A stretch of 64,000 nt of DNA, taken from an uncultured Elusimicrobia bacterium (GTDB lineage: Bacteria; Elusimicrobiota; Endomicrobiia; DTEH01). Position numbers and translations under genes: made by a program. The DNA lies in contig CAZLOB010000038.1 of assembly GCA_964561135.1 (NCBI GenBank), positions 6,427-70,426 of the forward strand. Reading direction: 5' to 3'. Shown here piece after piece: positions 6,193 through 60,900 of this stretch. The notes beneath the pieces were generated by a model that saw nothing but the letters and a program-made list of their open reading frames with translations, did not search any database and was not told where the DNA came from. The first letter of the stretch is position 1. Each line of letters begins with the position of its first letter.

Positions 6193-9100
6193 ATGTTAAA
6201 AGGAAAGATTTTCTTATTCATATTTATAATACTTTCCTACAATATTTTATTTTCACAAGAAAACGTAGAGGAAAACAAAATTAAATTTGACCAAAAAAAA
6301 TGGAATCGAATAAGAGAATGTATAGAAAACAATCTCCCATTATACGAGGAAGAAAAATCAACAAAAGTAGTTACAAAACCTTCTGTTGCTACTCCAACAA
6401 CTATAGAGTTTATTGAAGGAACACAACTTACTATTAATGGACGGAAACTTATTGGTATGGAAATCACATCAGTCAACTATCCATACAAACCTAATTATAA
6501 TAGAACAGATATAAATATGCGACAAGAATTACAAGTATCAGTGAAAGGAAAAGTAGGAAAGAATATAGATGTAAATATAGACATAGATGACACACAACCT
6601 GATAAACGAGATATATCTATTATATATCGTGGTGAAGGAGTAGACGTAACGCCTGGAGCTGTTGGGTACAAAGCAAAGCCTGGAGCTTTTATCCAAGAAA
6701 TAGCTTTTGGAGATATTCAACTTAGCCTACCAAACACAGAATTTGTAGGTTATTCAAGACAAGTTTTTGGGATAAAAGCTATTGTTCAATATGATCGTGC
6801 ACGAATGTATTTAATCGCTTCACAATCAAAAGGTAATTTTGAAACAAAAAGATTTACAGGAAAAACTGAGTTTGAACGAAAAATTATTTCTGACACATCG
6901 TATATACGAAGAAAATACTACAAAATTTTATTCGGTAATCATAAAATTAAAAGAGAAACAGTCAAAGTTTACTTAGATACTTTAGATCCGCAACGAGATC
7001 CTGCAACACTTATTGAACTTACAGCACAAGCTTTTCATATATCAACTTTTACTTATTCTGGTAAATTTGAACAGTTAGCTTTAGGGAAAGATTATGTTAT
7101 CGATTATTCCTTAGGTATTATAACTTTTTATAGACACATACAACCGAATTATATAATTGCAATTGACTACTTTGATGAGAACTCTGGTCTTACTTTAAGA
7201 GAACTTGCTAATACAACAAATTATATCCTAATAAAAGATAAAGATGAGACACCAAATATTACAACCGAATTGTTAAACAGATATTATATTGGTAGGACAA
7301 ACATTATCCGTGATGATGGCACAGGTAATTTTTTGTTAAGAATTATCGACAAAAGTGGCCGTATTTTAAATCCTGAAATAGATAAAATTCAACCTGACGA
7401 CAAAGACATCCCTGTTTATAAAACAGGAAATGTTGGTGATATTAAAGTTGATTTTGAAAACGGAATCATATATTTTGACCAAGAAAAACCTTTTGCAGAG
7501 GATTGTTATTATAAAACTCCAATAAGTAGATATGATATTCTTGTGGAGTATAGATATAAGTCTAAAACATATTTTTTAAAACCATTTATTGTACCTTATT
7601 CAGAACGTGTTGTTGTTGATGGAAAACTTCTACAACGTAATGTTGACTATTGGTTAGATTATGATTCTGGAATACTTTCCTTTTTGCGTGAAGAAGACAT
7701 AAAAGAAAATAGTATAATTGAAGTAAGTTATGAATACAGTATGTTAGGATTACAAGGTGGTGAAACAATATTAGGAAGTAGGTTAGAATTACCTTTGTCA
7801 AACAAATTATTTATAGGTGGAAGCTGGATCGGCAATCTACCTTCAAAAGGTTCTTCAGTGCCTGATATAAGAACAACGCCTTCATCATTGCAAATCTGGG
7901 AAACAGATGCAAGAATCACTTCTGTTAAAATTCCTCTTTTACCTTTACAGATAAATTCTATCTCTGCTGAATATGCTGAAAACGAAAAAAATCCTAATAT
8001 ATGGGACAAAGCCGTTGTTGAAAACATGGAAGGGATAACTTTAGAAGATAGTGTTTCAACATATAGACATATGTGGTATTATAGTTCTTGTAGTGATATA
8101 TATATTCCTGGAAGGTATGACGATAAAACTGATAAACTTGTTGAAGGAGAATTAAACTGGGAAAACGAAGATGTTCCTGTACAAGAAATAAACCCAAATA
8201 GACAAACTACTTACGATAAACAACAAGTGTTGAAAATAAATTATAATTTGTATTCATCACAAGAAGTTGCTATGGCATATTTATTCTCAAAATATGGTCT
8301 TGATTTCTCAAAAAAGTTATATTTAGAAATGGAGTATTATAGCAATGCTGGTGGTGGCGAGTTATATCTTGATCTTGGTCATCCTAGTGAAGACATTGAT
8401 GGTGACGGAGTTTTAGATACGGAAGACAAAAATTCTAACGGTAGATTAGATTTTAATGAAGATACAGGTTTTGAGTATAACAGAGATAACAAGATATACT
8501 ATATAGGCGGAAGTAATGGTAAACTGGACACTGAAGACATTGATGGTGATGGTATACTAAATACAAATGATATTCTCGCTGGGACATACAAAATTTCTGA
8601 TTTAAATTTTACTGGATGGGTATCAACCATCGTTCCTATATCAATAACAGACAAAACAATGTGGACATCTATAAAACAAGTGAGATTAAGAATAAAAGGA
8701 AAAGGAAAAAATGGTGTTGTGAAAATAGCAAAGATTTCTGTTGTAGGAAATAAGTTTGAAATTCATACTCCTCAAAATACAGAAATCTATGCTGTCAACA
8801 ACGAAAATGATCCTACTTATAAAAAACTTTCAGAACTTGAAGAATATACTTCTATATACGGTACACAATATAAAGAGAGACTAGTTGAACAAGCATTAGC
8901 TGTAAAATATAATCTTGACCCAACTTATTCTTCATCAGTTATAACTTTATCATTTTCTCGTGGACAAGATTTTACTTATCACCGTAAATTTAATTTCTTT
9001 TTATTTAATAAAACTGGCAATGAAATTGTATTTAAATTACGTATCTATACGGACCAAAATAACTATCTTGAGTTTTCTACACAAACTATAAGATGGACAA

Positions 9101-29237: not shown

Positions 29238-30815
29238 TTAATTCGTTTCTTTTTCTAAACATTCTTGTAAACGTTTTTCTGCCTGGGGCGATAAGTTTAA
29301 AAATTCTATTCCCGTTCTGTATTGATTATAATTGTTCTCTAATCTTGTAGAATGTTTAACTTTGGCTATTGTCTCTATAGTAAAGTTAGGTAAATAAAGT
29401 TCGACTTCAAGAAATGTACCAACAGGAAGATCTTCGTTTGATATAAATTGTAATCCTCTTAAAGATATATTTCTTGTTTTTGCTAATATGGGAAATACAG
29501 CTTTCATATCTTCAGCTGTAAGTTTTTTATATGCAAATGAGATTTCTTTGTTCACACGAACAAATTTTCGTTCTTCAATAGAAAACAATTTTTTTGAAAC
29601 AAAAATGTCTACTATATTTTTGTCTATTTTTCCTTGGTCTGCCATTTCATAAAGTGTTTTTATTGCATCTTGTTGTGAGAAAGGTGGTTTATAAGGACGG
29701 TCATAACTTATCAGTGCATCATAAATATCTGCAACACATAAAATCCGTGCTAATAAAGGTATCTGTTCACCTTTAAGACCGTACGGATATCCGCTACCGT
29801 CCATAAATTCGTGGTGTAAAGAAGCTATATATGGTACATCTTTATATTCTTGTGGAAAATGTATTTTTGACAGTATGTCATAAGTTAGTGTAGCATGTGT
29901 TTTCATAATTTCATATTCTTCAGGAGTAAACCTACCTTGTTTTAATAAAATACTATCAGGGACACCAATTTTGCCTATATCATGTAATATTGCAGCATAT
30001 TCTAAAACTTTTTTTTCAGAAATATCTAAATTCATTGCTTTAGCAATATTTATAGCGTATCTCATAACACGTAATGAATGACCTTTAGTGGCTGGGTCGC
30101 GTGCATCAACTACTGCTGCAAAAGATTTTAATAGACTTTCAAGTAACAACTGTATTTGTCCATAAAGCTGTGCGTTAATTATAACATTAGTAATTTCATT
30201 ACACAACAACACTAATATTTCTTCATCTTTTTTTGAAAACCCTTTTTTACTTTTCTTGTTCAAAACTTCAATCACACCAATAACATTGTTAGATTTATCA
30301 AATACTGGGACAGAAAGAATCGTTTTTGTCCTAAATTTTATTTTTTGATCTATAATTGGAGAAAACCTTTTATCTTTATAAACATCGTCATTTATTCTCA
30401 CAATTTGGCCTGTCTTAGCAACATATCCTGCAATACCTTCACCTATTGGTAACACAATTTCTTCAACGAATTCTTCAGCAACTATTGTCCATAAAATGTT
30501 CGCTTCTTTATTAACTAAAAAAATGCTGCTTCGTTCAGCGTTTAATAAATCTGAAATTGAATGAGCAATAAAATTAAATAATACATTTATATCAGTACAA
30601 TAGATTAATTGTGATATAACGTTGTACACATTTTTATAAAACAACAAAGAACTTATTTTGAAGTTGAAATAAAGAAAAACAAATGTAATGATAAGTAAAA
30701 ATAAAAGAAAAGATAAAACAATCGAATGTTTTGAAACAAATATTATCAATATGTAGAAAATGATACCAAAAAGAAAAAAGAACAGCAAAAAATTTTTTTT
30801 ATGCATTTTATGCAT
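29238..30815 (-). CDS. Membrane-anchored GAF / HD-GYP c-di-GMP phosphodiesterase with C-terminal PilZ domain
   Basis: Two N-terminal TMs. GAF block (LLNAERSSIFLVNKEANILWT...GIAGYVAKTGQIVRINDD). HD-GYP block (HSLRVMRYA...ILHDIGKIGVPD...HHEFMDGSGYPYGLKG). C-terminal PilZ motifs RKFVR (RxxxR) and NISLRGLQF (D/NxSxxG). Confidence 0.7.
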   Translation of the reverse strand: MHKMHKKNFLLFFFLFGIIFYILIIFVSKHSIVLSFLLFLLIITFVFLYFNFKISSLLFYKNVYNVISQLIYCTDINVLFNFIAHSISDLLNAERSSIFLVNKEANILWTIVAEEFVEEIVLPIGEGIAGYVAKTGQIVRINDDVYKDKRFSPIIDQKIKFRTKTILSVPVFDKSNNVIGVIEVLNKKSKKGFSKKDEEILVLLCNEITNVIINAQLYGQIQLLLESLLKSFAAVVDARDPATKGHSLRVMRYAINIAKAMNLDISEKKVLEYAAILHDIGKIGVPDSILLKQGRFTPEEYEIMKTHATLTYDILSKIHFPQEYKDVPYIASLHHEFMDGSGYPYGLKGEQIPLLARILCVADIYDALISYDRPYKPPFSQQDAIKTLYEMADQGKIDKNIVDIFVSKKLFSIEERKFVRVNKEISFAYKKLTAEDMKAVFPILAKTRNISLRGLQFISNEDLPVGTFLEVELYLPNFTIETIAKVKHSTRLENNYNQYRTGIEFLNLSPQAEKRLQECLEKETN

Positions 30816-32192: not shown

Positions 32193-35100
32193 TTATTTTT
32201 TAATAACAACTTGTTTTTTAGTAACAACATATTTCTTTCCTGACATTTCTTCAACTATAATTTTGCAAACATATACACCACTACCAACTTTTTGTTTTGC
32301 TTGGTTATCACATAACCATTCATATTGTTTATTTTCACCAGCAGAAGGATCAAGTTCTTCTTCTTTTACAAGTTCACCTAAAATGTTATAAATTCTTAAA
32401 GTAACTTTTTTTGCTGGATTTAATAATGAATATCTTAAAGTCACTTTACCAATTGAAGATGGATTAGGAAAAGTATACACACTATCTTTAAAAACTTCCT
32501 CTGCTGTAATAATATTTATGAAAAATTTCGATATATAAGTTGGCGAGGTGTTACCTGCGTTATCAACCAATGTTATATTTATTCTATATTCTCCATTAAT
32601 ATTCTGCTCGGGAAATGATAACAAAATAAGATAAGTAGTTGCGCTAATCTGTGTTAGTGATTTTATTGTTGAAACTTCTTTACCATCGGGACGATAAAGT
32701 CTAACATTTTGTGCTGAAAGATTTACTCCTGAACCACCTGTTTCTGTAAAAATTATTTGAATAGAACTAACTGCAACAGTAAATTTAGCGCCATCTTGTG
32801 GCCAAACAGATATAACTATTGGTGATGAAGTATCAGTTGCATATAGCTCTTGTAATTTCTTAAAGTTCACAGTAACAGAGGAAACAAGTGTGAGATCAAA
32901 ATCTATAACTTTTGCAAAAAAAGTCCTTGTTCCAGGTATGTTGCCAGTGTATACTGCTTTCACTTGACCATTAACATCTGTATAACTTGATAAAATAATA
33001 AACATATCATCTTGTGGTTTACTATCAACATATATTAAAACTTGTTTTTGTCCGATAGAAGGTATAGATGAAGAAATGATATTTCCGTATTGATCTTTAA
33101 GTGTCACCGTTATAATCACAGAACTTCCTATTAAAACATCATACGCAGTTGATTCTATTGTTGAGACAGTAGGTGACGGTTTCCCAGCAATAAGATCACT
33201 ACCTGGTAAAAACATAACAGCTGCTGTCGATAAAATTGTTTGGTTATCTGTTATATTATAAGCAGTGATAAATTTTAATTCTGCTTTTGTAGATGACAAC
33301 GTAGCAAAAGTTTGTCCTAAACTATTTGTTTTATCCTGTGGTTGAATAATTATATTCTGGGAACCAGTTACTGAAATTGACGCATCTTTATTAGCAACGG
33401 GTTGATTTGCAACATCTTTTAATGTTATAACAACATTTATTGTTGAACCAACAACAGCTTCATAATATTTTGTATAACTATCAATAATAGTCACACTTGA
33501 GAAAAATACACTTACTGCCCTTGTTATCCAAAACGTTTGTGATGCAGATTGTAATCCAGGATAAAAAACTGTAATGTTTTGTACGCCTGCTTCATTATCT
33601 CTGTATCTAAAACGCGCTTCTCCTAACACCATATTTACAGAATTACCTATCTCTACATTCGCTGTTGAACTTATAAAAGCATAATCTGAAGATGTTGTCT
33701 CTAAATAAACAATTCCTTCAATATCAACATCTTTATTTCCTTTTTCATCCTGTGCTTGGACAATAATTATTTGTGATGAAGACCCAGTAAGCAATTCCTG
33801 CCCAGCAGTAATAAATACAAGTTTTGTTGCAATAATATTATCAACTTGGAAACTCCCTGTTTGAACTGTTAAACCTACACCGTCTTCATCTTCAGGTGTA
33901 ATACGTATAGCTGTGGACACATCTTTATTGGGAAGGTCTTTTGTTGAATCCCAAATGAATGTATGTTCTTCACCTGATAAAGAAGCAAGTAAGTTTTCTG
34001 TTGGTTCTGAAGCGATCCATCTTGTAGCTGGTTTCCAATTACCATCTGTATCACGAAATTCTACTTTTATTTTACAATAATTATACGGCTCAGGTTTATC
34101 ATCTTCATCTATCAACCAATACTTTATTGTTACCAACCCTGTTTGTTCAGTAGATGGTGTTTCAATGACAACTTTTGGTGGTGTCCCTCTTACAACAAAT
34201 GTCTTAATTTCTGTGGCTTGTCCTGACGCTTCGTTTATTGATAAAACTACTGGTAAAGAAGTAGAATATATGTTATATGAATACGTTGCAATAGTTATAC
34301 TATATGGATTTTCAGCATAGAACCTATATTTTATTCTACCACCACTCCTACCAATACTACCAAACGGATAATTTATATTACTTAACACAAAATGGTATAT
34401 CTCACCATTAGTATAATCGCCATCATTACCCACACCTACTTTAAGTTGCATACCAAATTGTTCTGTTGTTTGGAATATAAGGTCATCGTTCAAATCAACC
34501 CATACTTGGACAGTAGTCGGCGGGTTACCATTACTTGCTAACCCAAGGTCAAAATATTTCACCTGAAATTCAACAGAACCAAATCTATCTATATAATTTG
34601 GTTCAACACCATCATCTACAAAACCACTAAAACCGCTATATACAATAGTAGGATCCCAATAAATTATGCTGTTAACCAAATCATCAGGTAAAAATGGTCT
34701 TGTATAATCTCTAAATGTTAAAACAGAATTTTTTGCACGAACATTAAAACATGCAGAAATTGTTGCTGTGTTTGTGTCAAGAACAATATTATCAAAAGTA
34801 TGTATGATATTGTTTGCAGTAATAAATGTAGTATATGTGGTAGCGGGTTGCAAGTTAGCAATATAAATTTTGTTTGTATTATTGAGTGGTGAACTATTAA
34901 ATGTGAGACCATTTGAATTTAAGAAAGTGAAACTTGTATATTCAATTTTAGTAATAGTTCCACCTAATGATAGTCCGTAATAAAAAAATTCTGTTCCAGA
35001 AACTATGTCATAACTTTTATCTTCAGCAAGTTTTCGCGTTACAATAGTAGGGGCTGCAGGATGACCAACAAATTCTATTGTTGCACCATCTTTGTTTTCA

Positions 35101-37475
35101 AAACATGCCCCAATATAATTGGGGTCTGAAAAATCGCATAAGTTAACTATTTTTTGTACATTTTTATCTTTTGATTCCGCGATTGTTACAAAAACATACT
35201 GTTCTCCTGGTGATATAGGTGATGCTCTATGTGTTAACCTAAACTTAACTTCTCCATTATCACTTATATAATCCTCATCATGAGTTAACAACCTTGACTG
35301 TACACCTGATTTTGTTCCATAAACTTGCCATTTATCTCCATCAGGTCCGTAACCATAACTTACAATCCATACTTCTGATTTTGTTGTAGAACTTGTTGTA
35401 ACAGATGTTATATCATTTGTCCCACCAGGGCCATCAACACCACCATCGTCGTAACGTAACATTGGTGTGTCATAAGAAAACAGTATAGTATTCCACCCAT
35501 GTGATTTTGTTTCATAAAGTTGATCTAAATAATTAAATTTTAACATATTTGAGGTATGCCAAGCATGAGCCGCTTGCGGCATTGAAAATTGTCCCCAGAT
35601 TCTTGTAAGACCCGGAATTCTATCATGATTTTGACTTATAACCCAAGAATTTTCTTTTGTAAATTCTTGTTTATATGGTGTATTGGCAAATTCTGTTGCA
35701 GAACCTAAGAAACAATTTTTCAACCATATTTGTGAAACATATCCTGTATTTTCTTCACCTTCTATATAAATATCACCACATTTGTTATCACTATAGTATT
35801 CATCAACACATAAATTGTCTATTGATGAATGTGACGCAAAACCATAACCTACATCATAACCAACATCGCCAGCATTACCAGTAGACACGTTCATCACAAA
35901 AATATTACCGTCAGAACCATATCTTACACGTATACCACCAACCTTGTTTGACCAACACTTGTTTGCACCTACATAGTTATATTTTGAACTTGACTCCAAA
36001 GCAATACCATACACACGATTGTTAAAACATTCATTGTTTATAATTACATTTTTGTTTGACCTAATTAGCGAAATACCTTCTTCTGCAAGTTGGTTATATA
36101 CTTTGTTTGAAGCAACTAAGTTTTTGTTAGAATCTTCAAAATATATCCCACGGATTTTGTTGTTATAAATCTCGTTGTATGAAATTTCGTTTTCAGAAGA
36201 ATTATCAAATCTTATCCCATATCCAACATTGCCACCTATATTTGAATAAATTTTGTTATTTCTTATATCTGACTTTTCTGTATTTTTAAACCACACACCA
36301 GCACGAACACAACTTCTTATTATATTTGATACTATCCCTTGAGAATACCACCAACGATTTATTCTTTTACAATTCTTAAACAATATCCCTGTATCAGGTG
36401 AAGAAGAAATGTCACAATTATAAAATTTTATATAATCTTTTGTACCATCAATAGGAGCACCAACACCAATGAAAACTATCCCATACAATTCATATCCTTC
36501 TGGTGTCGTTGTATCCCACAATCCTGTATGATGAACAACCACATTTTCCATTCTCATACCTACAGATGTTTCTTTATTTCGCTTCAAAGTTAAAATATAA
36601 TCAGCACTAATACTTATTGTCCTTTTAACAAATTCAGGATCAGGTTTGTCATGATTTGCCGGATTAGGATCGATTCCTACAATTTCCATATACCCTAAAT
36701 TTGTAGCGGCACCTAAATACAAATCTAATGTTGTATTGATAATTGGATTATAGAAATATATGTTTTTATTATTTTCTATTTCTTCAAAAATAAAACTACC
36801 CGGCGTGTTTATTAAAAGCATACCGTTGTTTATTAGCTTACCAGAACCATATACAGAAAAATTTACAATTGTAGATGAAACTACCTTAAATATACAATCT
36901 TTATCTATAGTAAGATTTAAAGTGTTAATAACAACATTTGAGTTTAAAGAATTACTACCAAAAACAACTTCAAACTTTGACCCATTATACTCATTTTTTG
37001 CAAGTTCTATATCTGAAAAGATGTTGATATCTACCCTTACATCTGATGTATCTATATTGATTACAAAATCGTTATTTTCTACCAACTTAAGCTTTTGGCA
37101 GGAAAGGTAGAACTTATCGTTTTCATTAGATGAATTTATTATTATTTGAGCAGCATTCCCACAATATATATCACCACTTATTGTTAAAGTGCTTCCTGTA
37201 ACACCATCAGAAACAAATCTTAATGTAGCATATTTATCTAAAGTTAATGATGCTGCAGAACATATTGCAGTAGTATCAATTATAATTATAAATCCTTGTG
37301 AAATTACAACATCATCACCTACTGTAGGAATAGTCCCGCTATCCCAAGTATTAGGTGAATTCCATAAAAGTGGTACTCCAGCTGTTCCCGTAGAAGTTAT
37401 AACTGCTGTATACCCTATTGAAGAAAATAATATGTAAAAAAGTAAAAAAGATATGAATAACTTTGTTTCTTTCAC
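32193..37475 (-). CDS. Giant (1760 aa) cell-surface protein: right-handed beta-helix (PbH1) repeats plus multiple Ig-like domains plus T9SS C-terminal sorting domain
   Basis: Signal peptide MKETKLFISFLLFYILFSSIGYTAV. Beta-helix repeats (NNKIYSNIGGNVGYGIRFDNSSENEISYNEIYNNKIRGIYFEDSNKNLVASNKVYN...). C-terminal CTD (KVTLRIYNILGELVKEEELDPSAGENKQYEWLCDNQAKQKVGSGVYVCKIIVEE...). Confidence 0.7.
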   Translation of the reverse strand: MKETKLFISFLLFYILFSSIGYTAVITSTGTAGVPLLWNSPNTWDSGTIPTVGDDVVISQGFIIIIDTTAICSAASLTLDKYATLRFVSDGVTGSTLTISGDIYCGNAAQIIINSSNENDKFYLSCQKLKLVENNDFVINIDTSDVRVDINIFSDIELAKNEYNGSKFEVVFGSNSLNSNVVINTLNLTIDKDCIFKVVSSTIVNFSVYGSGKLINNGMLLINTPGSFIFEEIENNKNIYFYNPIINTTLDLYLGAATNLGYMEIVGIDPNPANHDKPDPEFVKRTISISADYILTLKRNKETSVGMRMENVVVHHTGLWDTTTPEGYELYGIVFIGVGAPIDGTKDYIKFYNCDISSSPDTGILFKNCKRINRWWYSQGIVSNIIRSCVRAGVWFKNTEKSDIRNNKIYSNIGGNVGYGIRFDNSSENEISYNEIYNNKIRGIYFEDSNKNLVASNKVYNQLAEEGISLIRSNKNVIINNECFNNRVYGIALESSSKYNYVGANKCWSNKVGGIRVRYGSDGNIFVMNVSTGNAGDVGYDVGYGFASHSSIDNLCVDEYYSDNKCGDIYIEGEENTGYVSQIWLKNCFLGSATEFANTPYKQEFTKENSWVISQNHDRIPGLTRIWGQFSMPQAAHAWHTSNMLKFNYLDQLYETKSHGWNTILFSYDTPMLRYDDGGVDGPGGTNDITSVTTSSTTKSEVWIVSYGYGPDGDKWQVYGTKSGVQSRLLTHDEDYISDNGEVKFRLTHRASPISPGEQYVFVTIAESKDKNVQKIVNLCDFSDPNYIGACFENKDGATIEFVGHPAAPTIVTRKLAEDKSYDIVSGTEFFYYGLSLGGTITKIEYTSFTFLNSNGLTFNSSPLNNTNKIYIANLQPATTYTTFITANNIIHTFDNIVLDTNTATISACFNVRAKNSVLTFRDYTRPFLPDDLVNSIIYWDPTIVYSGFSGFVDDGVEPNYIDRFGSVEFQVKYFDLGLASNGNPPTTVQVWVDLNDDLIFQTTEQFGMQLKVGVGNDGDYTNGEIYHFVLSNINYPFGSIGRSGGRIKYRFYAENPYSITIATYSYNIYSTSLPVVLSINEASGQATEIKTFVVRGTPPKVVIETPSTEQTGLVTIKYWLIDEDDKPEPYNYCKIKVEFRDTDGNWKPATRWIASEPTENLLASLSGEEHTFIWDSTKDLPNKDVSTAIRITPEDEDGVGLTVQTGSFQVDNIIATKLVFITAGQELLTGSSSQIIIVQAQDEKGNKDVDIEGIVYLETTSSDYAFISSTANVEIGNSVNMVLGEARFRYRDNEAGVQNITVFYPGLQSASQTFWITRAVSVFFSSVTIIDSYTKYYEAVVGSTINVVITLKDVANQPVANKDASISVTGSQNIIIQPQDKTNSLGQTFATLSSTKAELKFITAYNITDNQTILSTAAVMFLPGSDLIAGKPSPTVSTIESTAYDVLIGSSVIITVTLKDQYGNIISSSIPSIGQKQVLIYVDSKPQDDMFIILSSYTDVNGQVKAVYTGNIPGTRTFFAKVIDFDLTLVSSVTVNFKKLQELYATDTSSPIVISVWPQDGAKFTVAVSSIQIIFTETGGSGVNLSAQNVRLYRPDGKEVSTIKSLTQISATTYLILLSFPEQNINGEYRINITLVDNAGNTSPTYISKFFINIITAEEVFKDSVYTFPNPSSIGKVTLRYSLLNPAKKVTLRIYNILGELVKEEELDPSAGENKQYEWLCDNQAKQKVGSGVYVCKIIVEEMSGKKYVVTKKQVVIKK

Positions 37476-53141: not shown

Positions 53142-54446
53142 TTATTTAAGAAATTCTTCCATTTCTTCTTCAGTTAATTTTTCACTTATTGACTTTAAAA
53201 ATTCAGCATTAGATTTTGTTTGTTTCAACGCAGCAATCAATTTTTCCATAGCCTCGATAGGTGGCAACTGCATTAAGACTTTCCTTAACACCCATATTTT
53301 CTTAAGATCTTTTTCAGGTATCAAAAGTTCTTCTTTTCTTGTCCCAGAACGAGTGATATCAATAGCTGGGAACACACGTCTATCAGCTAATCTTCTATCA
53401 AGGTAAATCTCCATATTACCAGTACCTTTGAACTCTTCAAAAATAACATCATCCATTCTTGACCCTGTTTCTACTAGCGCAGTTGCTATAATAGTTAAAG
53501 AACCGCCTTCCTCAACATTCCTTGCAGAACCAAAGAATCTTTTTGGCCGTTGTAGAGCAGTTGAATCTAACCCGCCAGAAAGAACACGACCACTTGAAGG
53601 GGTTACTGTATTATATGCTCGTGCTAACCTCGTAATAGAGTCAAGTAAAATAACTACATCATACTTATGTTCTACCAAACGTTTTGCTTTTTCTAAAACC
53701 ATTTCTGCAACTTGTATGTGTCTATCAGCAGGCTCGTCAAAAGTTGAAGATATAACCTCACATTTTACTGACCTCATCATATCGGTTACTTCTTCAGGTC
53801 GTTCATCAATAAGTAATGCTATAAGTTTTATCTCAGGATGGTTCTTTGTTATTGCATTTGCAATTTTTTGTAATAGTACTGTTTTTCCGGTTCTTGGTGG
53901 TGCGTTAATTAGAGCACGTTGTCCTTTACCTAAAGGAGTCAACAGATCTATAATACGTGTTGAAATTTCATCAGGTGTGGTTTCCAATACAATACGTTTG
54001 TTTGGATACAAAGGTGTTAGATTATCAAACAAAGGTCTTCCACGAAGTTCTTCAGGTTCAATTCCATTAACAGTTTTTATTTGTAATAAAGCATAATATT
54101 TTTCATCATTTTTTGGTGGCCTAACATAACCACCAACAGTATCACCTTTTCTTAATCCAAAACGTTTTATTTGAGAAGGCGAGATATAAATATCTTCATC
54201 ACTTTGTAGATAATTAAAGTTTGGTGATCTTAAAAAACCGAACCCGTCAGGTAAAATTTCTAACACACCTTCAGAGTACATAAGACCGTTTGTCTGTGAT
54301 TGTACTTCTATAATTTTTGATATTAGCTGTTGTTTTCTTAATCCTTCAATATTTTCTATTTTAAGTTCTTTAGCAAGTTTTGTAAGTTCTTGCATCTTCA
54401 TCTTTGCTAAAGATGACATATCAAAGGTTACTTGTTGCATTGGCAT
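53142..54446 (-). CDS. rho: Transcription termination factor Rho
   Basis: N-terminal RNA-binding OB (FGFLR..., [11 protein letters not shown]); Walker [15 protein letters not shown]; Q-loop and R-loop blocks; 434 aa. Confidence 0.9.
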
Positions 54447-54735
54447 AATTTTTTACCCCCTGATAAGAAAGTTTATATAAAAACTAGTTTTGACAAGATT
54501 TTTCAACCACATTGCTTATACCTTTTGGAAGGTTCATCTTTTATGAAAACTTTTGTTAAATCTTTTAAAAACATTGTTAAGTCTGATTTATTTAGACATG
54601 ATATTCAAAAAATGAATAGAATAAATTTTTGTTTTCACACAAACTAAAAATTATAAGGAAAGAAATTATTAAGTTATATACTTTTTAGAAAATACAAAAT
54701 AAATTTTTTTTTGTCAATAGGTAAAAAAAAATTAT

Positions 54736-54772
54736 AAAAGCAGGGGGTACTTTTTAGATACCCCCTGCTTTT
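54736..54772 (-). terminator. Rho-independent terminator downstream of the 54780..55604 gene
   Basis: AAAAGCAGGGGGTA-loop-TACCCCCTGCTTTT, 14-bp stem. On the minus-strand transcript it is followed by AUAAUUUUUUUUUACC. It lies 8 nt after the stop codon. Confidence 0.55.
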
Positions 54773-54779
54773 ATCTAAA

Positions 54780-55604
54780 TTATTGTTGCATTTCACCCTG
54801 CTGATATTGCTGATGGTCCTGTTGATATTGTTGATCACCCTGCAGATATTGCTGATAGTCCTGTTGATATTGTTGTTCACCTTGCTGATATTGCTGATGG
54901 TAATACTCTAATTGTTGCTGATTTTGAATTTGTTTTTGTTCTAAGAGTTGTTCTTGAATTTGAGCTTGAGTTTGTATACGTAGCTGAATTTGTGCCATAA
55001 TTTCTTCTTTTAGTTCAACAGGTAATTCGATTTTTCCTTCCTTTATATCAGAAAGAATTTTTTGTCTTGCAACAACATCAACATCTCCTTCCTCACCTTT
55101 CATTGTCTCTTTAACTACTGCCAAAGCATGTTCCACAGGAATACCTTGTTCTACAAGAGATTCCAATACTTCAACAGACTTAGATGTTCTCTCACCTTTA
55201 TGTTTTTTTATCTCTTTTTCTAACTCAAGTTTTGCTTTATCAATTTGTCTTTTTATCATATTTGTTGTCTTCTCAATATCTTTCTCACATTTTTTAACAT
55301 CATTAGTACCAACCCATTTTTCCACACGTTCACAAATCTTTACAGCAAGTTGAACTGGTGGCACTTCTGCTTGTTCAATTTTTTCTTTTAGTTTTGCAAT
55401 GATTTGTTCTTTTTGTTCCTCAGTTAATTTTGTTTTTTCTAACCTTGCTTCAACTATTTTTACTATTTCATCAACATCTACTTTAAACTGCTGAGGTTCA
55501 ACAATTACATCAACATCTACATCAACATCTATATCAGCTTCGGTACTAAATAATAGTAAAGATGTCAATAACATTGTTAAACTTAGTGTAATTATTTTTT
55601 TCAT
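54780..55604 (-). CDS. Secreted coiled-coil protein with D/V N-terminal repeat and a C-terminal Gln/Tyr-rich tandem repeat (last gene of the ECF sigma operon)
   Basis: Signal peptide MKKIITLSLTMLLTSLLLFS; DIDVDVDVDV; one LTEEQ (LTxxQ-like) motif. C-terminus (Q,Y) repeat array QQYQQGEQQYQQDYQQYLQGDQQYQQDHQQYQQGEMQQ, encoded by ~18-21-bp DNA repeats. Strong SD AAGGAGGT. Confidence 0.5.
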   Translation of the reverse strand: MKKIITLSLTMLLTSLLLFSTEADIDVDVDVDVIVEPQQFKVDVDEIVKIVEARLEKTKLTEEQKEQIIAKLKEKIEQAEVPPVQLAVKICERVEKWVGTNDVKKCEKDIEKTTNMIKRQIDKAKLELEKEIKKHKGERTSKSVEVLESLVEQGIPVEHALAVVKETMKGEEGDVDVVARQKILSDIKEGKIELPVELKEEIMAQIQLRIQTQAQIQEQLLEQKQIQNQQQLEYYHQQYQQGEQQYQQDYQQYLQGDQQYQQDHQQYQQGEMQQ

Positions 55605-55628
55605 TTTTGGCTACCTCCTTTTTTATTA

Positions 55629-55709
55629 GTCTACTTTTTCTTCCGAAGTGGATTTATAAAACTTTCATCACCTCCTTTCCCCACTATAAATTGGAAGAAA
55701 AAAGTAGAC
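55629..55709 (-). promoter_or_regulatory. Long imperfect inverted repeat (16/17-bp arms, 48-nt loop) in the leader of the 54780..55604 gene; loop carries SD plus mini-ORF MKVL
   Basis: Arms GTCTACTTTTTCTTCC (55629-55644) and GGAAGAAAAAAGTAGAC (55693-55709). On the minus-strand RNA the loop contains GGAGGTG then ATGAAAGTTTTATAA (55654-55668). Confidence 0.3.
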
Positions 55710-55714
55710 AAAAA

Positions 55715-56401
55715 TTACATTCTTACAACATTAACTTTCTTAACCACATCTTTTTCAAAAGAACCTTTTTTGATCCTAATCTTTACTGGAAATTCTCCTT
55801 CTTTAACAGCTCTTACTTTAATCACCAAATAATTTTCTTGAGGTTTCAAATCTCCCTCCCAATAAACCACTCTCTTTCCTTCAGAAGTAACAATTCCCTC
55901 AGGAAGTTCTATTTCAACTTTTGCATTTTTTAACTCTTTTTTAGCAGTAAGCTTTATCCTTATATATCCCCTTTCTTGAAGTAACAAATTATCCCTAATT
56001 TCATAACCTGCCAAATTGTACTCTCCATATGAATATCTTAGGTATGAGTAAGGTTGCACAAAAGTTATTCTATCTTTGTTTAGAAATATCGCAAAAATAA
56101 TTACAAAAATAATCACCATAACAACAGCATATCTTAAAAACAACACACCTAACTTTTTCTCTAACATGCTTTCATAACTTAACTGCCTCAATTTTGAATG
56201 AAGAACATAAGAAAAATTTTCTTTTAATTGAGGAACTTTTAAAAACGACAAATTTTCTTTGATTTTTAAATAATAATCCAATTCTTGCCTACAATCATCA
56301 CATTTTTCTAAATGCTGTTTTAAAAAAACTTCTTGTTGTTGAGTAAGCTCTTTGTCAAGATATTTTTGTATAAGAAACTTTATTTTTTTACATTCTTTCA
56401 T
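55715..56401 (-). CDS. Zinc-binding (ZAS-type) anti-sigma factor, single-pass membrane protein
   Basis: Start MKECKK with a GGAGG SD. HxxxCxxC motif QHLEKCDDCRQE. TM LFLRYAVVMVIIFVIIFAIFL. Periplasmic C-domain. Confidence 0.6.
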   Translation of the reverse strand: MKECKKIKFLIQKYLDKELTQQQEVFLKQHLEKCDDCRQELDYYLKIKENLSFLKVPQLKENFSYVLHSKLRQLSYESMLEKKLGVLFLRYAVVMVIIFVIIFAIFLNKDRITFVQPYSYLRYSYGEYNLAGYEIRDNLLLQERGYIRIKLTAKKELKNAKVEIELPEGIVTSEGKRVVYWEGDLKPQENYLVIKVRAVKEGEFPVKIRIKKGSFEKDVVKKVNVVRM

Positions 56402-56458
56402 TTTCTTCCTCCTTTCCACTATAATAGACAAGAAATCTTTTAAAAATGTTCCCAGAGA

Positions 56459-57751
56459 TTAAAAATATAAACCTATCCCAAAAGAATAGTTTTGTGTTTT
56501 GTAAGAATACAAAGCGTTAGATGAGTCTGATGTTGAATTAGTGTAATTGAAACTAACCTCAAACTGATTTGTTAGTTTTATTCGTAGGGAGCTATAAAAT
56601 GAATTAATTTTATCCTTTCTGTCAACTTTAAATGATTTGTCTATGATATTAGCACCTATTGAAATTGAAACTTTTTTAAATCTTTTTTCTATTCTGCTAT
56701 TGAGAAACAAACTAGTATAGGAATATAAATCTGACTGTGTATTTTTTATCTTATAACCAGCATCTGCTTTTAAAAGACCAATTTTGAAAGATAAGATATA
56801 TTCTGTTGTTACGCCATTTAACAACTTATAATTAGTATCAAGATATTCATCTGTATTACAACCTGCAGAAATTTCTAAAATTAAATCATCTAAATACATT
56901 TCAGTTTTTATCTTTGAAGCAAGATTTCTTAGCAATGGTCTATCTTCAATATAATACCCTCCAGATAGGACCAAATCAATATTAAACTTAGGTATTAATT
57001 CAAACTTTAAACTTCCAAAAAAATTTTTGAAATTATAGTTATTATATTTCAAATAATTTTTTAAAACTGAACTTAAAGAAACACTAACAGTCTCATCAAA
57101 AAATAAAACTGAAACATAAGTTGAGTATGAAGAATCGCTTAAACCTAATAACTCATAATACATTTCTGGAACATAGTTTATATTTGTTTCGTATCCATAG
57201 CTTCCCTGTAGATATATCACAACATTTTTAGCAACATATTTTCTGTAATCAATTCCAAATTTTTCTAACACATCTTGTGCTTTAAGTAAGTTTATAGAGT
57301 AAGGATAATTTTTTTGCAGAACTTTATATTTTTCAATTGCGGCTTTTTTATCCTTTAATTTCAAATAAGAAACAATCATAAGATACAAACTTTGATCATA
57401 AATAAACCTATCAGTATGTGTTTTTTCTAAAAATCCAATAGCTTCTTTGTATTTTTTAAGTTTAAATTTTGTCACACCCAAATTATAGAATAAACTTGAC
57501 GAAGAATAACCGCAATAATAAGATTTTTCAAAATACTCTTCTGCTAAAGTATAATTCCCAATTTTAAAATAACAAATGCCCAAATAATATCCTATCTTAG
57601 GATCTTCCTCTATTTTGCTTTTCTTAGAAGAAAGAATTCGAATAGCTTCTTCATATCTTTGCGATTTTATCAAACCTTCTATATAAGAAGAATCATCTTG
57701 GCTAGAAAACAAATAAGAAACAAATACCAAAAAAAACATCAAAACTTTCAT
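56459..57751 (-). CDS. TPR-repeat N-domain fused to C-terminal outer-membrane beta-barrel
   Basis: Signal peptide. TPR-like repeats (AIRIL...YYLGICYFKIGNYTLAEEYFEKS...AIGFLEK). C-terminal alternating pattern ending in ...NYSFGIGLYF (terminal Phe). Confidence 0.5.
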   Translation of the reverse strand: MKVLMFFLVFVSYLFSSQDDSSYIEGLIKSQRYEEAIRILSSKKSKIEEDPKIGYYLGICYFKIGNYTLAEEYFEKSYYCGYSSSSLFYNLGVTKFKLKKYKEAIGFLEKTHTDRFIYDQSLYLMIVSYLKLKDKKAAIEKYKVLQKNYPYSINLLKAQDVLEKFGIDYRKYVAKNVVIYLQGSYGYETNINYVPEMYYELLGLSDSSYSTYVSVLFFDETVSVSLSSVLKNYLKYNNYNFKNFFGSLKFELIPKFNIDLVLSGGYYIEDRPLLRNLASKIKTEMYLDDLILEISAGCNTDEYLDTNYKLLNGVTTEYILSFKIGLLKADAGYKIKNTQSDLYSYTSLFLNSRIEKRFKKVSISIGANIIDKSFKVDRKDKINSFYSSLRIKLTNQFEVSFNYTNSTSDSSNALYSYKTQNYSFGIGLYF

Positions 57752-58305
57752 TATTCTAAAAGTTCCTTCGCTTCTTTTAATATTAAACTTTTTAAAATCT
57801 GCCTTGCACGATATAACCTTGTTTTAACAGTATTCAAATTCTTTCCCAAAATTTCCGCAATCTCTTCGTATGATTTTCCTTCAAATTCATAAAGTATTAA
57901 TACTATTTGAAACTTATGTGGAATTTTAAGAATTAATTTTCTTAACTTTTCTGCTTTTATTTTTTTATCTAAATCTTCATCAAATTTTTCACTTTCATAT
58001 ACCTCATGACCAACATTTTCAAAACTAATTTCTGCAACAGACCTAAATTTTTTGGCAATATTATTTATCACATTACAAGTGACTCTATAAACCCATCTAT
58101 CAAAAGGACCACGGAACTTATATAAATTTATTTTTTTAAAAATTCTTAATATTACTTCTTGGCAAATATCTTCTGCAAGGTGTAAATCTTGAGTTTTAAA
58201 ATATGCTATGTTATAAATTTTTTGCTGATATATTGAGATAAGTTCTTCAAAAGCGTTTATATCTCCTTTTTGGGAACGAATTATTAATTCTTTTTCTTTA
58301 TCCAT
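57751..58305 (-). CDS. ECF (sigma-24 family) RNA polymerase sigma factor
   Basis: Region 2 (YNIAYFKTQDLHLAEDICQEVILRIF) and region 4 HTH (SYEEIAEILGKNLNTVKTRLYRARQIL). Its stop overlaps the next start. Confidence 0.85.
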   Translation of the reverse strand: MDKEKELIIRSQKGDINAFEELISIYQQKIYNIAYFKTQDLHLAEDICQEVILRIFKKINLYKFRGPFDRWVYRVTCNVINNIAKKFRSVAEISFENVGHEVYESEKFDEDLDKKIKAEKLRKLILKIPHKFQIVLILYEFEGKSYEEIAEILGKNLNTVKTRLYRARQILKSLILKEAKELLE

Positions 58306-58347
58306 GCATTTAAATTATAGACAGAAAAAAAACTCAAAATGTTCCTA

Positions 58348-58377
58348 TTGACTTTAGAATTTTTTATTTTGTATAAT
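58348..58377 (+). promoter_or_regulatory. Sigma-70-like promoter for ndk
   Basis: TTGACT, 18-nt spacer, TATAAT; ~38 nt upstream of the ndk ATG. Confidence 0.4.
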
Positions 58378-58414
58378 TTTATATAGAAAATTACCTTAAT
58401 TAATTTCAACAGCT

Positions 58415-58930
58415 ATGAAAAAACATCAATACACTTTAGTAATAATTAAACCTGATGCACTAGTAAAATCTTTGACTGGTAACATATTAACAAGGTTATC
58501 AGAAGCAAAATTAAGAATAATAGGTGCAAAAGTAGTAAAAGTTACAAGAGAACTTGCAGAAAAACACTATGCTCATTTAAAAGACAAACCATTTTTTGAA
58601 GATCTTTACGAATATTTTTCTGGCAAAGCATATGGTCCTGAATATGAGCGCATTTTAGTGTTTGTTTATGAAGGTGAAGATGCTATTGAACGTGTAAGGA
58701 AAATAGCAGGAGCTACAAACCCGCTTGAAGCAGATCCTACTACAATACGCGGTGCTTATGGTAGGATAAATAAAAAGGGTATTATGGAAAATGTGATACA
58801 TTGTTCTGACTCAGAAGAAGCTGCTGAAAGAGAAATAAAGTTGTGGTTTAAACCAGACGAAATTGTTGAACCTATATATCCTACAAAAGTTGTATATAAA
58901 GATAATTATCCAGTTGTTGAATGGGCATAA
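58415..58930 (+). CDS. ndk: Nucleoside diphosphate kinase
   Basis: TLVIIKPDAL and NVIHCSDSEEAAEREIKLWF (active-site His region). Confidence 0.9.
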   Translation: MKKHQYTLVIIKPDALVKSLTGNILTRLSEAKLRIIGAKVVKVTRELAEKHYAHLKDKPFFEDLYEYFSGKAYGPEYERILVFVYEGEDAIERVRKIAGATNPLEADPTTIRGAYGRINKKGIMENVIHCSDSEEAAEREIKLWFKPDEIVEPIYPTKVVYKDNYPVVEWA

Positions 58931-59099: not shown

Positions 59100-60161
59100 A
59101 TGAAATTTATTATCCGAATTATTTTTATATCAATCTTATCTTTAATACTTTCTGCAGAAGAACTATATTACCCCACATATATTACAGGCAGTGGTGTACC
59201 TATAAATGAATACACTTTATTTGCAAACAGTGGTTGGGATGGTAACTGGTATGTTGGGTCTAATATGTGTTGGATAAAAAAGTTTGATAAAACTTTACTT
59301 CCTGATAAAAAATTTTTTTCAAGATTTTTTATTGGTGCAAAACTTGGCAGAGCTAAGACAAAATCAAAACCTGCTTCACCACCATGGGAAAAAGATTATA
59401 TTGATGGTAACATTTATGTAGGTGTATCTTCAACACCAGCCTGGCGTGCAGATCAACGATATTTTTTATGTAAAGTATCAGATATACCTACTGAAGGTGA
59501 CTGGGAAAATGCAATTACAACAACTGGTGAGGCAAGATGGTTTTATACAGAAATTCCTATTGAAAAAGTTGATTTTGAAAAAGACATTTGGGTTTGTATT
59601 TATTCAAATACAGAATATTTAAACTCAGCCTCATCTTCACCTATACTTGCAGGTGCTTGGCGTGAACGTCCTCAAAGAAATTTTAATGTTTGGCTAAACA
59701 ACGAAATTCACTGTGCACCACCTATAGATCCTTCAACTTCACTGAAGACAGAAATACGTGCATTTGACCCTGCAATAATTATAAAACTTGTTCCTTTAGG
59801 TGCTGAGAATCTTCCTGTGAATATACAAGTTGTAAGTATTCAAGATGGTAGGCAACAAGATGATGAAAAAATTTTTTATGTAACATCATTAACACCCAAC
59901 ATTGAACGTATGTATATGGAAATTTCACAGGATAACATAGAGTATAAAAAAATTTCCAAATATTTGTATTCACAACCATATGTATTCAACTTATCAATTT
60001 CAATGATACCACCGGAGATTTCCGGCGATTTTTATATTAGGTTTGCTGCAGAAGATATTTTTGAAAATAAAGGGACTACACAAGAAATAAAACTCTCTAT
60101 CACAAGAGAAAAAGAAGAAATAATACAACAACCTGAAGGAAAAAAGAAGAAAAAGAAATAA
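59100..60161 (+). CDS. Secreted hypothetical protein (353 aa) with poly-Lys C-terminus
   Basis: Signal peptide MKFIIRIIFISILSLILSA; no recognizable catalytic motif; ends ...QQPEGKKKKKK. Confidence 0.35.
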   Translation: MKFIIRIIFISILSLILSAEELYYPTYITGSGVPINEYTLFANSGWDGNWYVGSNMCWIKKFDKTLLPDKKFFSRFFIGAKLGRAKTKSKPASPPWEKDYIDGNIYVGVSSTPAWRADQRYFLCKVSDIPTEGDWENAITTTGEARWFYTEIPIEKVDFEKDIWVCIYSNTEYLNSASSSPILAGAWRERPQRNFNVWLNNEIHCAPPIDPSTSLKTEIRAFDPAIIIKLVPLGAENLPVNIQVVSIQDGRQQDDEKIFYVTSLTPNIERMYMEISQDNIEYKKISKYLYSQPYVFNLSISMIPPEISGDFYIRFAAEDIFENKGTTQEIKLSITREKEEIIQQPEGKKKKKK

Positions 60162-60162
60162 G

Positions 60163-60900
60163 TTGCTGATTAAAAAAAACTTTTCAAAACTAATGATACC
60201 ATTAAAAGATAATATTCCATCATATAGAAAACCTTTTGTAAACTATCTTATAATTATAGCAAATACTTTAGTTTTTATCTACCAATATTTTTTACTTCCT
60301 TCAAAACATGAGATTCAACAATTAGTATATAATTACGGCTTTATCCCTTATAGGTTTATAACAGAATTTAATAATTCATGGTATACATTATTTTCTTGTA
60401 TGTTTCTCCATGGTGGATTTTTACATTTTTTAGGCAACATGTGGTTTTTATACATTTTCGGTGACAATGTTGAAGATATATACGGTCATATTAAGTTTCT
60501 ATTAATTTATATCATATGCGGTATTTCAGCAACGTTTGTTCAATTCATTTTCTCACCAACATCTACAATACCTATTATAGGTGCCTCAGGCGCTATCTCC
60601 GGTGTTTTAGGTTCATACTTTATATTCTTTCCTACAGCAGGTGTGTTAACTTTGATACCTTTTGGTATTTTTTCACGAATTGTGGTTTTACCAGCAGTGA
60701 TATTTTTAGGTTTTTGGTTCATATTTCAACTATTTAGTGGTACACAAACTTATGCATTACAAGTTGTTACAGGCAGAGACATTGGAGGCGTTGCATATTG
60801 GGCACATATAGGTGGGTTTATTGCAGGACTTTCTATTGCAATGTTTACTAAAAAGAAAAGAAAAATAAGAAGAATTAAAACTTATTGGTACTACTTATGA
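60163..60900 (+). CDS. Rhomboid-family intramembrane serine protease
   Basis: Catalytic GxSG (IGASGAISGVLGSYF) and a downstream His (AHIGGFIAG); six predicted TMs. Confidence 0.75.
   Translation: MLIKKNFSKLMIPLKDNIPSYRKPFVNYLIIIANTLVFIYQYFLLPSKHEIQQLVYNYGFIPYRFITEFNNSWYTLFSCMFLHGGFLHFLGNMWFLYIFGDNVEDIYGHIKFLLIYIICGISATFVQFIFSPTSTIPIIGASGAISGVLGSYFIFFPTAGVLTLIPFGIFSRIVVLPAVIFLGFWFIFQLFSGTQTYALQVVTGRDIGGVAYWAHIGGFIAGLSIAMFTKKKRKIRRIKTYWYYL

Follow-up and report, generated by a model that had tools for sequence, protein, structure and literature searches.

Pairs of a sigma factor of the extracytoplasmic function (ECF) type and its anti-sigma factor are a major route by which bacteria sense the state of their envelope. 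To our knowledge, the ways of linking the outer membrane itself to such a circuit are few, namely TonB-dependent transducers of the FecI/FecR/FecA kind and outer-membrane protein (OMP) C-termini acting through DegS. The ECF re-classification paper describes ECFs as usually autoregulating and as being encoded beside their own regulators and targets (PMC7826278). Here we describe a cluster of four genes at positions 54780-58305, minus strand, of a 64-kb stretch of DNA from an uncultured Elusimicrobia bacterium (the window, meaning the whole stretch analysed; G+C 25-33%). It encodes an ECF sigma factor, an OMP that joins a tetratricopeptide repeat (TPR) domain to a beta-barrel, a zinc-type anti-sigma factor, and a secreted helical protein that we refer to as gene 4. 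The sigma/anti-sigma core is of known families (ECF; zinc-binding anti-sigma (ZAS), RsiW-like). To it this conserved, lineage-restricted ECF circuit adds two accessory protein families and a cis-RNA, none of them described before. The cluster is not FecIRA, is not DUF560/Slam by either sequence or neighbourhood, and is not a BcsC/PgaA/PelB exporter, nor is gene 4 CpxP/Spy. In literature searches for Elusimicrobia ECF systems and for combinations of TPR, 14-strand barrel and anti-sigma factor, we did not find this arrangement described, nor did we find it in the main text of the re-classification paper (PMC7826278). The genes, and the terminator that closes the cluster, are as follows (aa, amino acids; bp, base pairs).

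57751-58305, minus strand: ECF (group IV) sigma factor, 184 aa, matching Sigma70_r2 (PF04542), Sigma70_r4_2 (PF08281) and TIGR02937
56459-57751, minus strand: predicted Sec-exported outer-membrane protein, 430 aa, with TPR Pfam matches, a barrel in its AlphaFold2 (AF2) model and a terminal Phe
55715-56401, minus strand: single-pass zinc-type anti-sigma factor, 228 aa, with a zf-HC2 match, invariant Cys/His residues and a match to RsiW
54780-55604, minus strand: gene 4, predicted secreted acidic all-helical protein, 274 aa, from the open reading frame (ORF), AF2 and the family alignment
54734-54774, minus strand: intrinsic terminator directly after gene 4, with a 17-bp stem containing 7 GC pairs and then AATTTTTTTT

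An initial annotation of the window had proposed a module of four co-directional and tightly packed envelope genes at this place, in which the sigma stop codon overlaps the start of the barrel gene and a terminator follows the last gene. These points are borne out. All four genes are present in the ORF list on the minus strand, the sigma stop and barrel start share one base (TAATG), and the terminator is the only terminator-like site within 54400-58500. In all lineages other than the window's the overlap between the sigma stop and the barrel start is 4 nucleotides (nt), and the OMP gene is, as far as overlapping stop and start codons can tell, translationally coupled to sigma in all lineages.

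The same annotation had suggested looking for the four-gene order in relatives, and this we did using a set of fetched loci, L001 to L016. The order sigma, TPR-barrel, anti-sigma, gene 4 is identical in all eight independent lineages, that is, in each locus with sufficient flank: the window's own lineage (L003/L004/L009), L001/L005, L002/L011, L010, and L006, L013, L014 and L016, the last four of which make up a distant clade. Two partial loci, L012 and L015, agree with this order. Identity to the window proteins in the distant clade is 51-53% for sigma and falls to 33-42% for the other three proteins, showing that the gene order has survived long divergence. For three of the four proteins the order persists at identities as low as 33-36%. 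The flanks depend upon the clade, with ndk and rho in the window clade, and response regulator-GGDEF-Sigma54_DBD genes and ribonucleotide reductase in the distant clade (neighbours across the loci include ndk, rho, a major facilitator superfamily gene, ribonucleotide reductase and others), and thus the four genes travel as a unit. Given that the order recurs in every related locus with enough flank, the arrangement is no accident. The family is also narrowly distributed. The named source organisms of the relatives are an uncultured Elusimicrobia metagenome-assembled genome (MAG) and Endomicrobiia/Endomicrobia MAGs, and the barrel protein, searched by word index as a single protein or as an alignment, is very rare, forming 6 clusters among 5.8 billion proteins (the remaining matches of these searches were TPR-only noise). 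A scan of a genome collection with the single barrel protein as query returned no relative, and with the alignment as query it returned L005 and L006; a metagenome scan with the anti-sigma alignment returned four loci only, all of the same family.

Judged by its sequence, the sigma factor has the hallmarks of the ECF group (group IV), possessing sigma2 and sigma4 domains alone and being of small size (184 aa). It matches TIGR02937 with 85.6 bits (cutoff 42.9), the best named models are SigW-like, all scoring below their cutoffs, and identity to its orthologues is 51-67%. The only model that the anti-sigma factor matches significantly is zf-HC2 (32.1 bits; cutoff 22.2); C4, H30, C34 and C37, which make up an HxxxCxxC motif with an upstream Cys, are invariant in the four lineages aligned; and the family profile matches the N-terminal domain of RsiW in the PDB (5wuq, E 1.4e-5). 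The zinc anti-sigma factor called by the initial annotation is therefore well founded, and by its sequence characteristics the protein is placed in ZAS class I (RsiW-like). The mechanically called ORF, 56431..55715, begins at a TTG (56431), but the true start is likely to be the ATG at 56401, which lies 8 nt after a GGAGG and gives the 228-aa protein; the orthologues start MKxC at the same point. An N-terminal anti-sigma domain is followed by a transmembrane (TM) segment at residues ∼84-107 and a periplasmic domain at ∼108-228 (∼120 residues). This C-terminal periplasmic domain is the best conserved part of the protein among close relatives (69-72%, compared with 59-62% in the anti-sigma domain), has a basic isoelectric point (pI) of 9-10 in every lineage and is without a Pfam match; from its strand-like sequence pattern, we suspect that it is an Ig-like sandwich. 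No match to the FecR domain was found in the anti-sigma factor at E<=10.

The likeness to SigW/RsiW lies in the sigma2/sigma4 sigma factor, the zf-HC2 anti-sigma factor with its C...HxxxCxxC and single TM segment, and a promoter motif that is self-directed. The differences are that here an OMP gene, translationally coupled to sigma, splits sigma from anti-sigma, that a second sigma-type motif separately precedes the anti-sigma gene, that the anti-sigma periplasmic domain matches nothing in Pfam, and that the host is a diderm, of the Elusimicrobia. The promoter-like motifs in question are two.

58315-58347, minus strand: P1, promoter-like motif of ECF type, TAGGAACATTTT-N-TGTCTATAA, lying upstream of sigma (pattern match; 33.0 bits by position weight matrix (PWM))
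56422-56454, minus strand: P2, internal ECF-type promoter-like motif TGGGAACATTTTT-N-TGTCTATTA (pattern match; PWM 41.7 bits)

A -35 element GGAAC, a spacer of ∼18 nt and a -10 element GTCTA form the general ECF pattern, as in RpoE- and SigW-type promoters. A promoter of this type had been suggested as something to look for upstream of 58305, and P1 (TAGGAACATTTTGAGTTTTTTTTCTGTCTAT, 58347..58315) is found there. P2 (TGGGAACATTTTTAAAAGATTTCTTGTCTAT, 56454..56422) lies inside the 57-nt spacer between the barrel stop codon and the anti-sigma ATG, 26 nt upstream of that ATG and with the GGAGG in between. The two share the motif TGGGAAC-N18-TGTCTA. The looser pattern GGAAC-N16-19-GTC has two matches in the window, where 1.78 are expected by chance, these two being P1 and P2, which are nearly identical to one another. 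The strict motif, searched for in 195 kb (window plus loci), gives 22 matches, all but one of which (21/22) fall at the two orthologous positions P1 and P2. Using a PWM built from 12 sites, P2 has the best score of the window, P1 and P2 are the only sites in it scoring above 12 bits, and no site exceeds 12 bits in 20 shuffles of the window. No locus, not even the distant L006, L013 or L014, lacks P2 at the orthologous position. In the five loci aligned, which come from four lineages and include the distant L006, the remainder of the spacer varies but TGGGAAC and TGTCTA are the same throughout. The orthologous P1 motif is present in L001/L005, L002/L011, L003, L010 and L014.

In the window only 12 nt separate the GTCTA of P1 from the sigma ATG, with no Shine-Dalgarno (SD) sequence between them, such that a sigma message started at P1 would be leaderless or nearly so. 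The length of the leader between P1 and sigma varies among the orthologues. With no terminator between the genes, two transcripts are likely, both ending at the terminator: one begun at P1, with all four genes, and one begun at P2, with anti-sigma and gene 4. Thus the shared transcription implied by the initial annotation holds insofar as no terminator precedes the end of gene 4, but the internal P2 motif makes it probable that the cluster is not one simple transcription unit.

The protein encoded between sigma and anti-sigma has two parts.

57257-57664, minus strand: TPR domain, approximately residues 30-165 (Pfam TPR matches within residues 27-150; AF2 helices)
56462-57220, minus strand: 14-stranded beta-barrel, residues 178-429 (AF2)

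The AF2 model (monomer, six-sequence alignment, pLDDT, the predicted local distance difference test score, 74.5) shows TPR-type helices at ∼30-165 followed by 14 long strands (178-429) joined by very short turns. The strands are amphipathic, a Leu/Ile/Phe-rich face alternating with a Ser/Tyr/Lys/Asn-rich face of balanced charge, and the C-terminus reads ...GIGLYF, with the terminal Phe kept in all orthologues. The predicted fusion of a TPR domain to an outer-membrane barrel ending in Phe is thus upheld by the Pfam matches, the AF2 model and the C-terminus. The N-terminus resembles a signal peptide and there is no Cys in the first 59 residues, indicating that the protein is not a lipoprotein. 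The alternative that it might be a generic BamD/TPR lipoprotein can be set aside, as there is no lipobox Cys and a 14-strand, 250-residue barrel follows the TPR part. The TPR domain is basic and, among close relatives, more alike (55-63% identity) than the barrel (44-54%).

By structure, the barrel comes closest to CymA and OmpG, monomeric porins of 14 strands, with BcsC, PgaA and PelB also among the matches; in the Foldseek search of the barrel model against the PDB, the best matches were to OmpG, and BcsC aligned full-length. By sequence, phmmer found nothing for the barrel domain among 1.84 billion representatives beyond its own family, save a repetitive protein of 2274 aa (E 4e-6), a match that we regard as spurious. 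The sole Pfam match is a sub-threshold one to BBP2_2 (best E 0.001), in three of the six members. There was no match to DUF560 (PF04575) at E<=10 with two barrel domains or at E<=1 with six members, none to Plug, TonB_dep_Rec or STN in the six family members at E<=1, and none to any exporter-barrel family even at E<=1-10. On these sequence comparisons the barrel belongs to no described sequence family.

These results bear upon the comparison with FecI/FecR/FecA. In both cases an outer-membrane barrel is genetically tied to an ECF sigma factor and a membrane anti-sigma factor, and has a periplasmic domain available for contact with the anti-sigma factor. The barrel here, however, has 14 strands rather than 22 and no Pfam match to a plug, STN or TonB receptor, the anti-sigma factor is RsiW-like rather than of the FecR type, and there are no TonB/ExbBD genes in the cluster. 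The analogy with TonB-dependent signalling drawn by the initial annotation can therefore be kept only in a loose sense.

Within the last gene, two stretches stand out.

∼55498-55536, minus strand: (Asp-Val)4 stretch, D26-V33, at the predicted mature N-terminus, invariant in the family
54792-54901, minus strand: Q/Y heptad repeats on the C-terminal helix (42-nt tandem repeat, 2.6 copies, 89% matches)

Gene 4 belongs to a family of 14 clusters, none of which has a significant Pfam match; the window protein has no significant NCBIfam match either. The features conserved in the family are the signal peptide, DxDVDVDV, [L/F/Y]TxEQ, Cys91, a VEVLExLVExGIPVEHAL block and a Q-rich C-terminal region. 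The N-terminus of the window protein is signal-peptide-like and has no lipobox, and the AF2 model (monomer, 13 sequences; pLDDT 77.6, predicted template-modelling score 0.65) is all-helical, with a 78-residue C-terminal helix (196-273) and a disordered (DV)4 N-terminus. Together with the 42-nt tandem repeat, which encodes QQYQQ[G/D]x heptads, this agrees with the secreted Q/Y-repeat protein that had been called as the last gene of the cluster. C91 is the only invariant Cys, which rules out a conserved disulfide. The mature protein is acidic, with a pI of ∼5, in six of seven lineages.

A resemblance of gene 4 to CpxP/Spy had also been proposed, and this did not hold up: there is no match to LTXXQ (PF07813) in Pfam, no sequence match in the PDB and no fold match to CpxP/Spy, and the [L/F/Y]TxEQ motif occurs singly, in 13 of 14 aligned orthologues, being ISEET in L006. 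What gene 4 could share with CpxP/Spy and RseB is being a periplasmic protein induced by the pathway that it may dampen and co-transcribed with the negative regulator. Gene 4 differs from CpxP/Spy in being much longer, in its Q-rich tail, and in having one LTXXQ-like motif instead of two.

The sequence of the window's Q/Y repeats is not conserved, and Q/Y-rich tails recur in several orthologues. Tail length differs even between near-identical strains, at 274 aa in the window compared with 262/263 aa in L003 (3029-3817) and P0027, despite the barrel protein of L003 being 100% identical to that of the window. The tail is thus a hypervariable tandem repeat, varying in copy number and in its ending. 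Two further matches in this region were discarded. P0031 (249 aa, JGI; named MepM/NlpD in its source) has the C-terminus of sigma (…KIPHKFQIVLILYE) fused straight to the middle of gene 4; it is most probably an assembly chimera or deletion variant, and the source name is misleading. A Thr_leader match in Rfam (54734-54849, minus strand) has 30.7 bits, below the gathering score of 55; it coincides in part with the terminator and the Q/Y repeat, and we put it down to chance.

The spacer between anti-sigma and gene 4 contains a further element.

55628-55710, minus strand: two-tier RNA hairpin, its outer stem of ∼16 bp separated by an internal loop from a 6-bp inner stem, with the SD-like GAAAGGAGGUGA in the apical loop

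The 110-nt spacer holds an invariant sequence, GAAAGGAGGTG, flanked by inverted repeats whose sequence changes from locus to locus. Orthologous hairpins lie at L001 5393-5474, L010 5699-5782, L015 586-660, L013 5904-5975, L014 5904-5979 and L006 8325-8399, and the same two-tier fold is found in seven of eight loci, with folding z-scores of -3.1 to -6.8; in the L002/L011 lineage the motif is kept and two small hairpins replace the long stem. A covariance model made from five loci recovers the two distant loci left out of it, at the orthologous place, with E ∼1e-6. In the covariance alignment, pairing extends to 97% of cells and double changes to 18 of 22 pairs, values reached by none of 500 shuffles, and sliding the partners lowers the covariation score from 0.73 to 0.07-0.16; these figures are to be read in the knowledge that the hairpin alignment was fitted to the model. 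Rfam 15 has no match overlapping 55628-55710 at E<=1, and at gathering score its only matches in the window are two tRNAs. An earlier anti-SD pairing within the spacer, obtained with MAFFT/RNAalifold, was misleading, that alignment being out of register, and is superseded by the covariance-model alignment. Also rejected were a mini-ORF following the SD-like sequence of the loop (MKVL* in the window), neither the length nor the presence of which is conserved across loci, and small ORFs of 26 and 36 aa between anti-sigma and gene 4 (in L001 and L002), which overlap the hairpin and are not conserved.

Up to 12 nt of the apical loop are complementary to the 3' end that 16S rRNA usually has (the window itself is without an rRNA gene), and gene 4 has its real ribosome-binding site and its ATG 10-25 nt downstream of the hairpin. 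We read the hairpin as a putative post-transcriptional control of gene 4, which may be an RNase III-type processing site or a site for the 30S subunit, displayed on the loop, that stabilises or primes the downstream message. The arrangement, an SD-like GAAAGGAGG well upstream of a highly expressed gene's real ribosome-binding site, recalls standby sites and the STAB-SD sequence of Bacillus thuringiensis cry3A. It differs from STAB-SD in that a long covarying hairpin carries the motif in its apical loop, in the spacer of a polycistronic message and in a diderm phylum. The term STAB-SD itself occurs in PMC7509114 and PMC12970973.

Taking these observations together, we tentatively favour an envelope signalling circuit that is autoregulated and specific to this lineage, with a SigW/RsiW-like sigma/zinc anti-sigma pair at its core, the OMP as sensor or positive arm and gene 4 as adaptor or feedback component, an interpretation to which we give somewhat less than an even chance. 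That the four-gene cluster may sense envelope stress is plausible. We infer that the OMP is the sensor and that gene 4 serves as periplasmic adaptor or output, favouring these roles because the OMP is paired with sigma, because the periplasmic parts are better conserved, and because the charges are complementary. In such a circuit, the anti-sigma factor would hold sigma at the inner membrane, with its basic periplasmic domain as the input side. The OMP would put its basic TPR domain into the periplasm and, being made one-to-one with sigma from P1, would serve as the sensor or positive arm. The acidic gene-4 protein, made with the anti-sigma factor from P2, would be both the main output and a partner of the TPR domain, the anti-sigma periplasmic domain, or both; it could act as a co-anti-sigma factor or adaptor, a role played elsewhere by RseB or CpxP, to neither of which it is homologous. 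An envelope signal would inactivate the anti-sigma factor, probably through regulated proteolysis by analogy with RsiW, and the freed sigma would fire both P1, giving more sigma and OMP, and P2, giving an excess of anti-sigma and gene 4, so as to produce a self-limiting pulse. The hairpin, as a processing site and/or a site of 30S binding, would uncouple the fate of the gene-4 message from that of the regulator genes.

Several points weigh against this interpretation. The barrel model has no plug and very short loops, features that fit a channel better than a ligand-gated receptor. P1 is absent from L006 and L013, where sigma closely follows the upstream gene, and that P1 and P2 are read by this sigma at all is something we infer from their ECF-like form and their position. 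The charge of gene 4, opposite to that of the basic TPR and anti-sigma periplasmic domains, would be weak evidence for contact between them, and the complementarity is broken in L011, where gene 4 has a pI of 8.7.

The features that sit awkwardly with a receptor are those that would be expected were the cluster a secretion module, in which the TPR-barrel protein is a Slam/type 11-like translocon, gene 4 is its cargo, targeted by the invariant (Asp-Val)4 strand at its N-terminus, and the sigma/anti-sigma pair controls or monitors the export pair. We consider this rather unlikely. A periplasmic TPR domain followed by a 14-stranded barrel, of similar size and with an adjoining Sec-exported partner, is the layout of Slam/DUF560 proteins (PMC8406197) and that of our AF2 model, whose barrel has, besides its short loops and lack of a plug, a polar lumen. 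Gene 4 is Sec-exported and always co-encoded, its invariant N-terminal strand is amphipathic and its tail is disordered or of low complexity. Yet no member of the barrel family matches DUF560 or an exporter-barrel family at the permissive thresholds given above. Type 11 cargo have a TbpB-like beta-barrel domain and are located near TonB-dependent receptors (PMC8406197), whereas gene 4 is all-helical and no lipoprotein, and the cluster has neither a TbpB-like domain nor a TonB-dependent receptor near it; moreover, it is in Proteobacteria that type 11 systems have been described. The coupling of the barrel gene is with sigma, not with its supposed cargo, and the anti-sigma gene and P2 stand between barrel and gene 4. 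The TPR-barrel fusions among the PDB matches, BcsC, PgaA and PelB, are also exporters, but these have 16-strand barrels (as noted for PgaA, in comparison with DUF560 barrels, in PMC8406197) and much longer TPR arrays, and are encoded beside glycosyltransferase or synthase genes, of which there are none in any locus.

Another possibility, which we also hold to be improbable on balance, is a plain stress regulon. Here the sigma/anti-sigma pair would sense alone, the barrel protein would be a sigma-dependent porin and gene 4 an induced structural or chaperone-like protein, and neither would signal. The closest likeness of the barrel is to the monomeric porins CymA and OmpG, and each accessory gene has a sigma-type promoter motif upstream of it. 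There is also a precedent in the OprF porin, within the sigX cluster of Pseudomonas, OprF being an OmpA-like protein of 8 strands. In the re-classification paper, porin-containing ECF clusters are represented by ECF102, SigX-CfrX-CmpX-OprF, the outer-membrane porin of which is thought to be regulatory (PMC7826278). Our cluster differs from ECF102 in its porin family, its gene order, its lack of a mechanosensitive channel and its TPR domain, which is not found in ECF102. It is this domain that argues against a simple porin, which needs no conserved periplasmic TPR domain, let alone one better conserved than its barrel; likewise, the co-conservation, the slot between sigma and anti-sigma, and the coupling in all lineages exceed what is usual for a target gene.

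Returning to the signalling circuit, a more specific form of it is TonB-independent trans-envelope signalling, running from a 14-strand channel with a TPR arm, through gene 4 as an acidic adaptor spanning the periplasm, to the RsiW-like anti-sigma factor, with the hairpin and its 12-nt anti-16S sequence tuning the circuit. We think it unlikely that all of this would prove correct. In its boldest version, gene 4 may be a co-anti-sigma factor that is cleared from the periplasm by export through the barrel.

The models of DegS/RseA in E. coli and of MucE for AlgW/MucA in Pseudomonas, in which OMP C-termini trigger the response, suggest that the barrel protein might be a sentinel which, when left unassembled as the capacity of the barrel assembly machinery (BAM) falls, triggers cleavage of the anti-sigma factor by way of its C-terminal aromatic signal or its TPR domain, but we judge this very unlikely, for although an aromatic beta-signal ending in F is present in all orthologues, the protein appears to be made stoichiometrically with sigma through overlapping stop and start codons, and the barrel evolves faster than the periplasmic TPR part, the idea is drawn by analogy from those two organisms, the conserved cluster encodes neither a protease like DegS or AlgW nor a PDZ protein, and a C-terminal Phe is generic for OMPs.

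Turning to the surroundings of the cluster, the region 59100-60900 (plus strand), beyond ndk, encodes a 353-aa secreted protein without a Pfam match and then a rhomboid intramembrane protease. This pair is present also in L001 (31-1818), and the secreted protein in L005 (3464-4495); neither is found in the other lineages. We considered the rhomboid, which lies two genes upstream, as the protease for the anti-sigma factor and dropped it, as it is a neighbour in the window and the L001 lineage only. In the distant clade (L006 3204-5369, L013 1-2988, L014 1-2954, L016 1-2617), the genes that always precede the module encode a histidine kinase with a GAF domain, a response regulator, a GGDEF protein and a ∼360-aa protein whose only match is to Sigma54_DBD, and a 93-105-aa ORF and ribonucleotide reductase always follow it. 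The upstream genes may represent an additional regulatory input in that clade. L011 has a 365-aa OMP-like ORF (6657-7754, minus strand), with a signal peptide and C-terminal aromatic-rich strands, between gene 4 and rho and on the opposite strand. Elsewhere in the window there is a 1717-aa ORF at 6193-11346 (plus strand) with no Pfam family at E<=1e-5; a 1760-aa protein at 32193-37475 (minus strand) with right-handed beta-helix/NosD, Big_1 and FlgD-Ig matches, which is probably a large surface protein; and a protein at 29238-30815 (minus strand) that has GAF, HD-GYP-type HD_5 and C-terminal PilZ domains, the latter two implying a cyclic di-GMP phosphodiesterase and a receptor domain in one chain.

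With this cluster, a diderm phylum that has been little studied contributes a compact design of four parts that are strictly inherited together. Two of its protein families have neither a Pfam family nor a structural relative, and its pair of promoter motifs predicts a positive and a negative feedback arm. Should the barrel protein and gene 4 be mere targets, it would be an ordinary lineage-specific ECF regulon. Since the parts are small and self-contained, and the only promoter sites of this kind in the 64 kb are its own, rebuilding the cluster in E. coli should be easy; the rebuilt circuit could show whether a non-TonB barrel signals to the anti-sigma factor, and the sigma/promoter pair may serve as an orthogonal switch. 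If gene 4 were indeed a co-anti-sigma factor exported through the barrel, the activity of sigma would be a readout of outer-membrane secretion or permeability, in what would be a diderm-envelope analogue of the FlgM/sigma-28 checkpoint.

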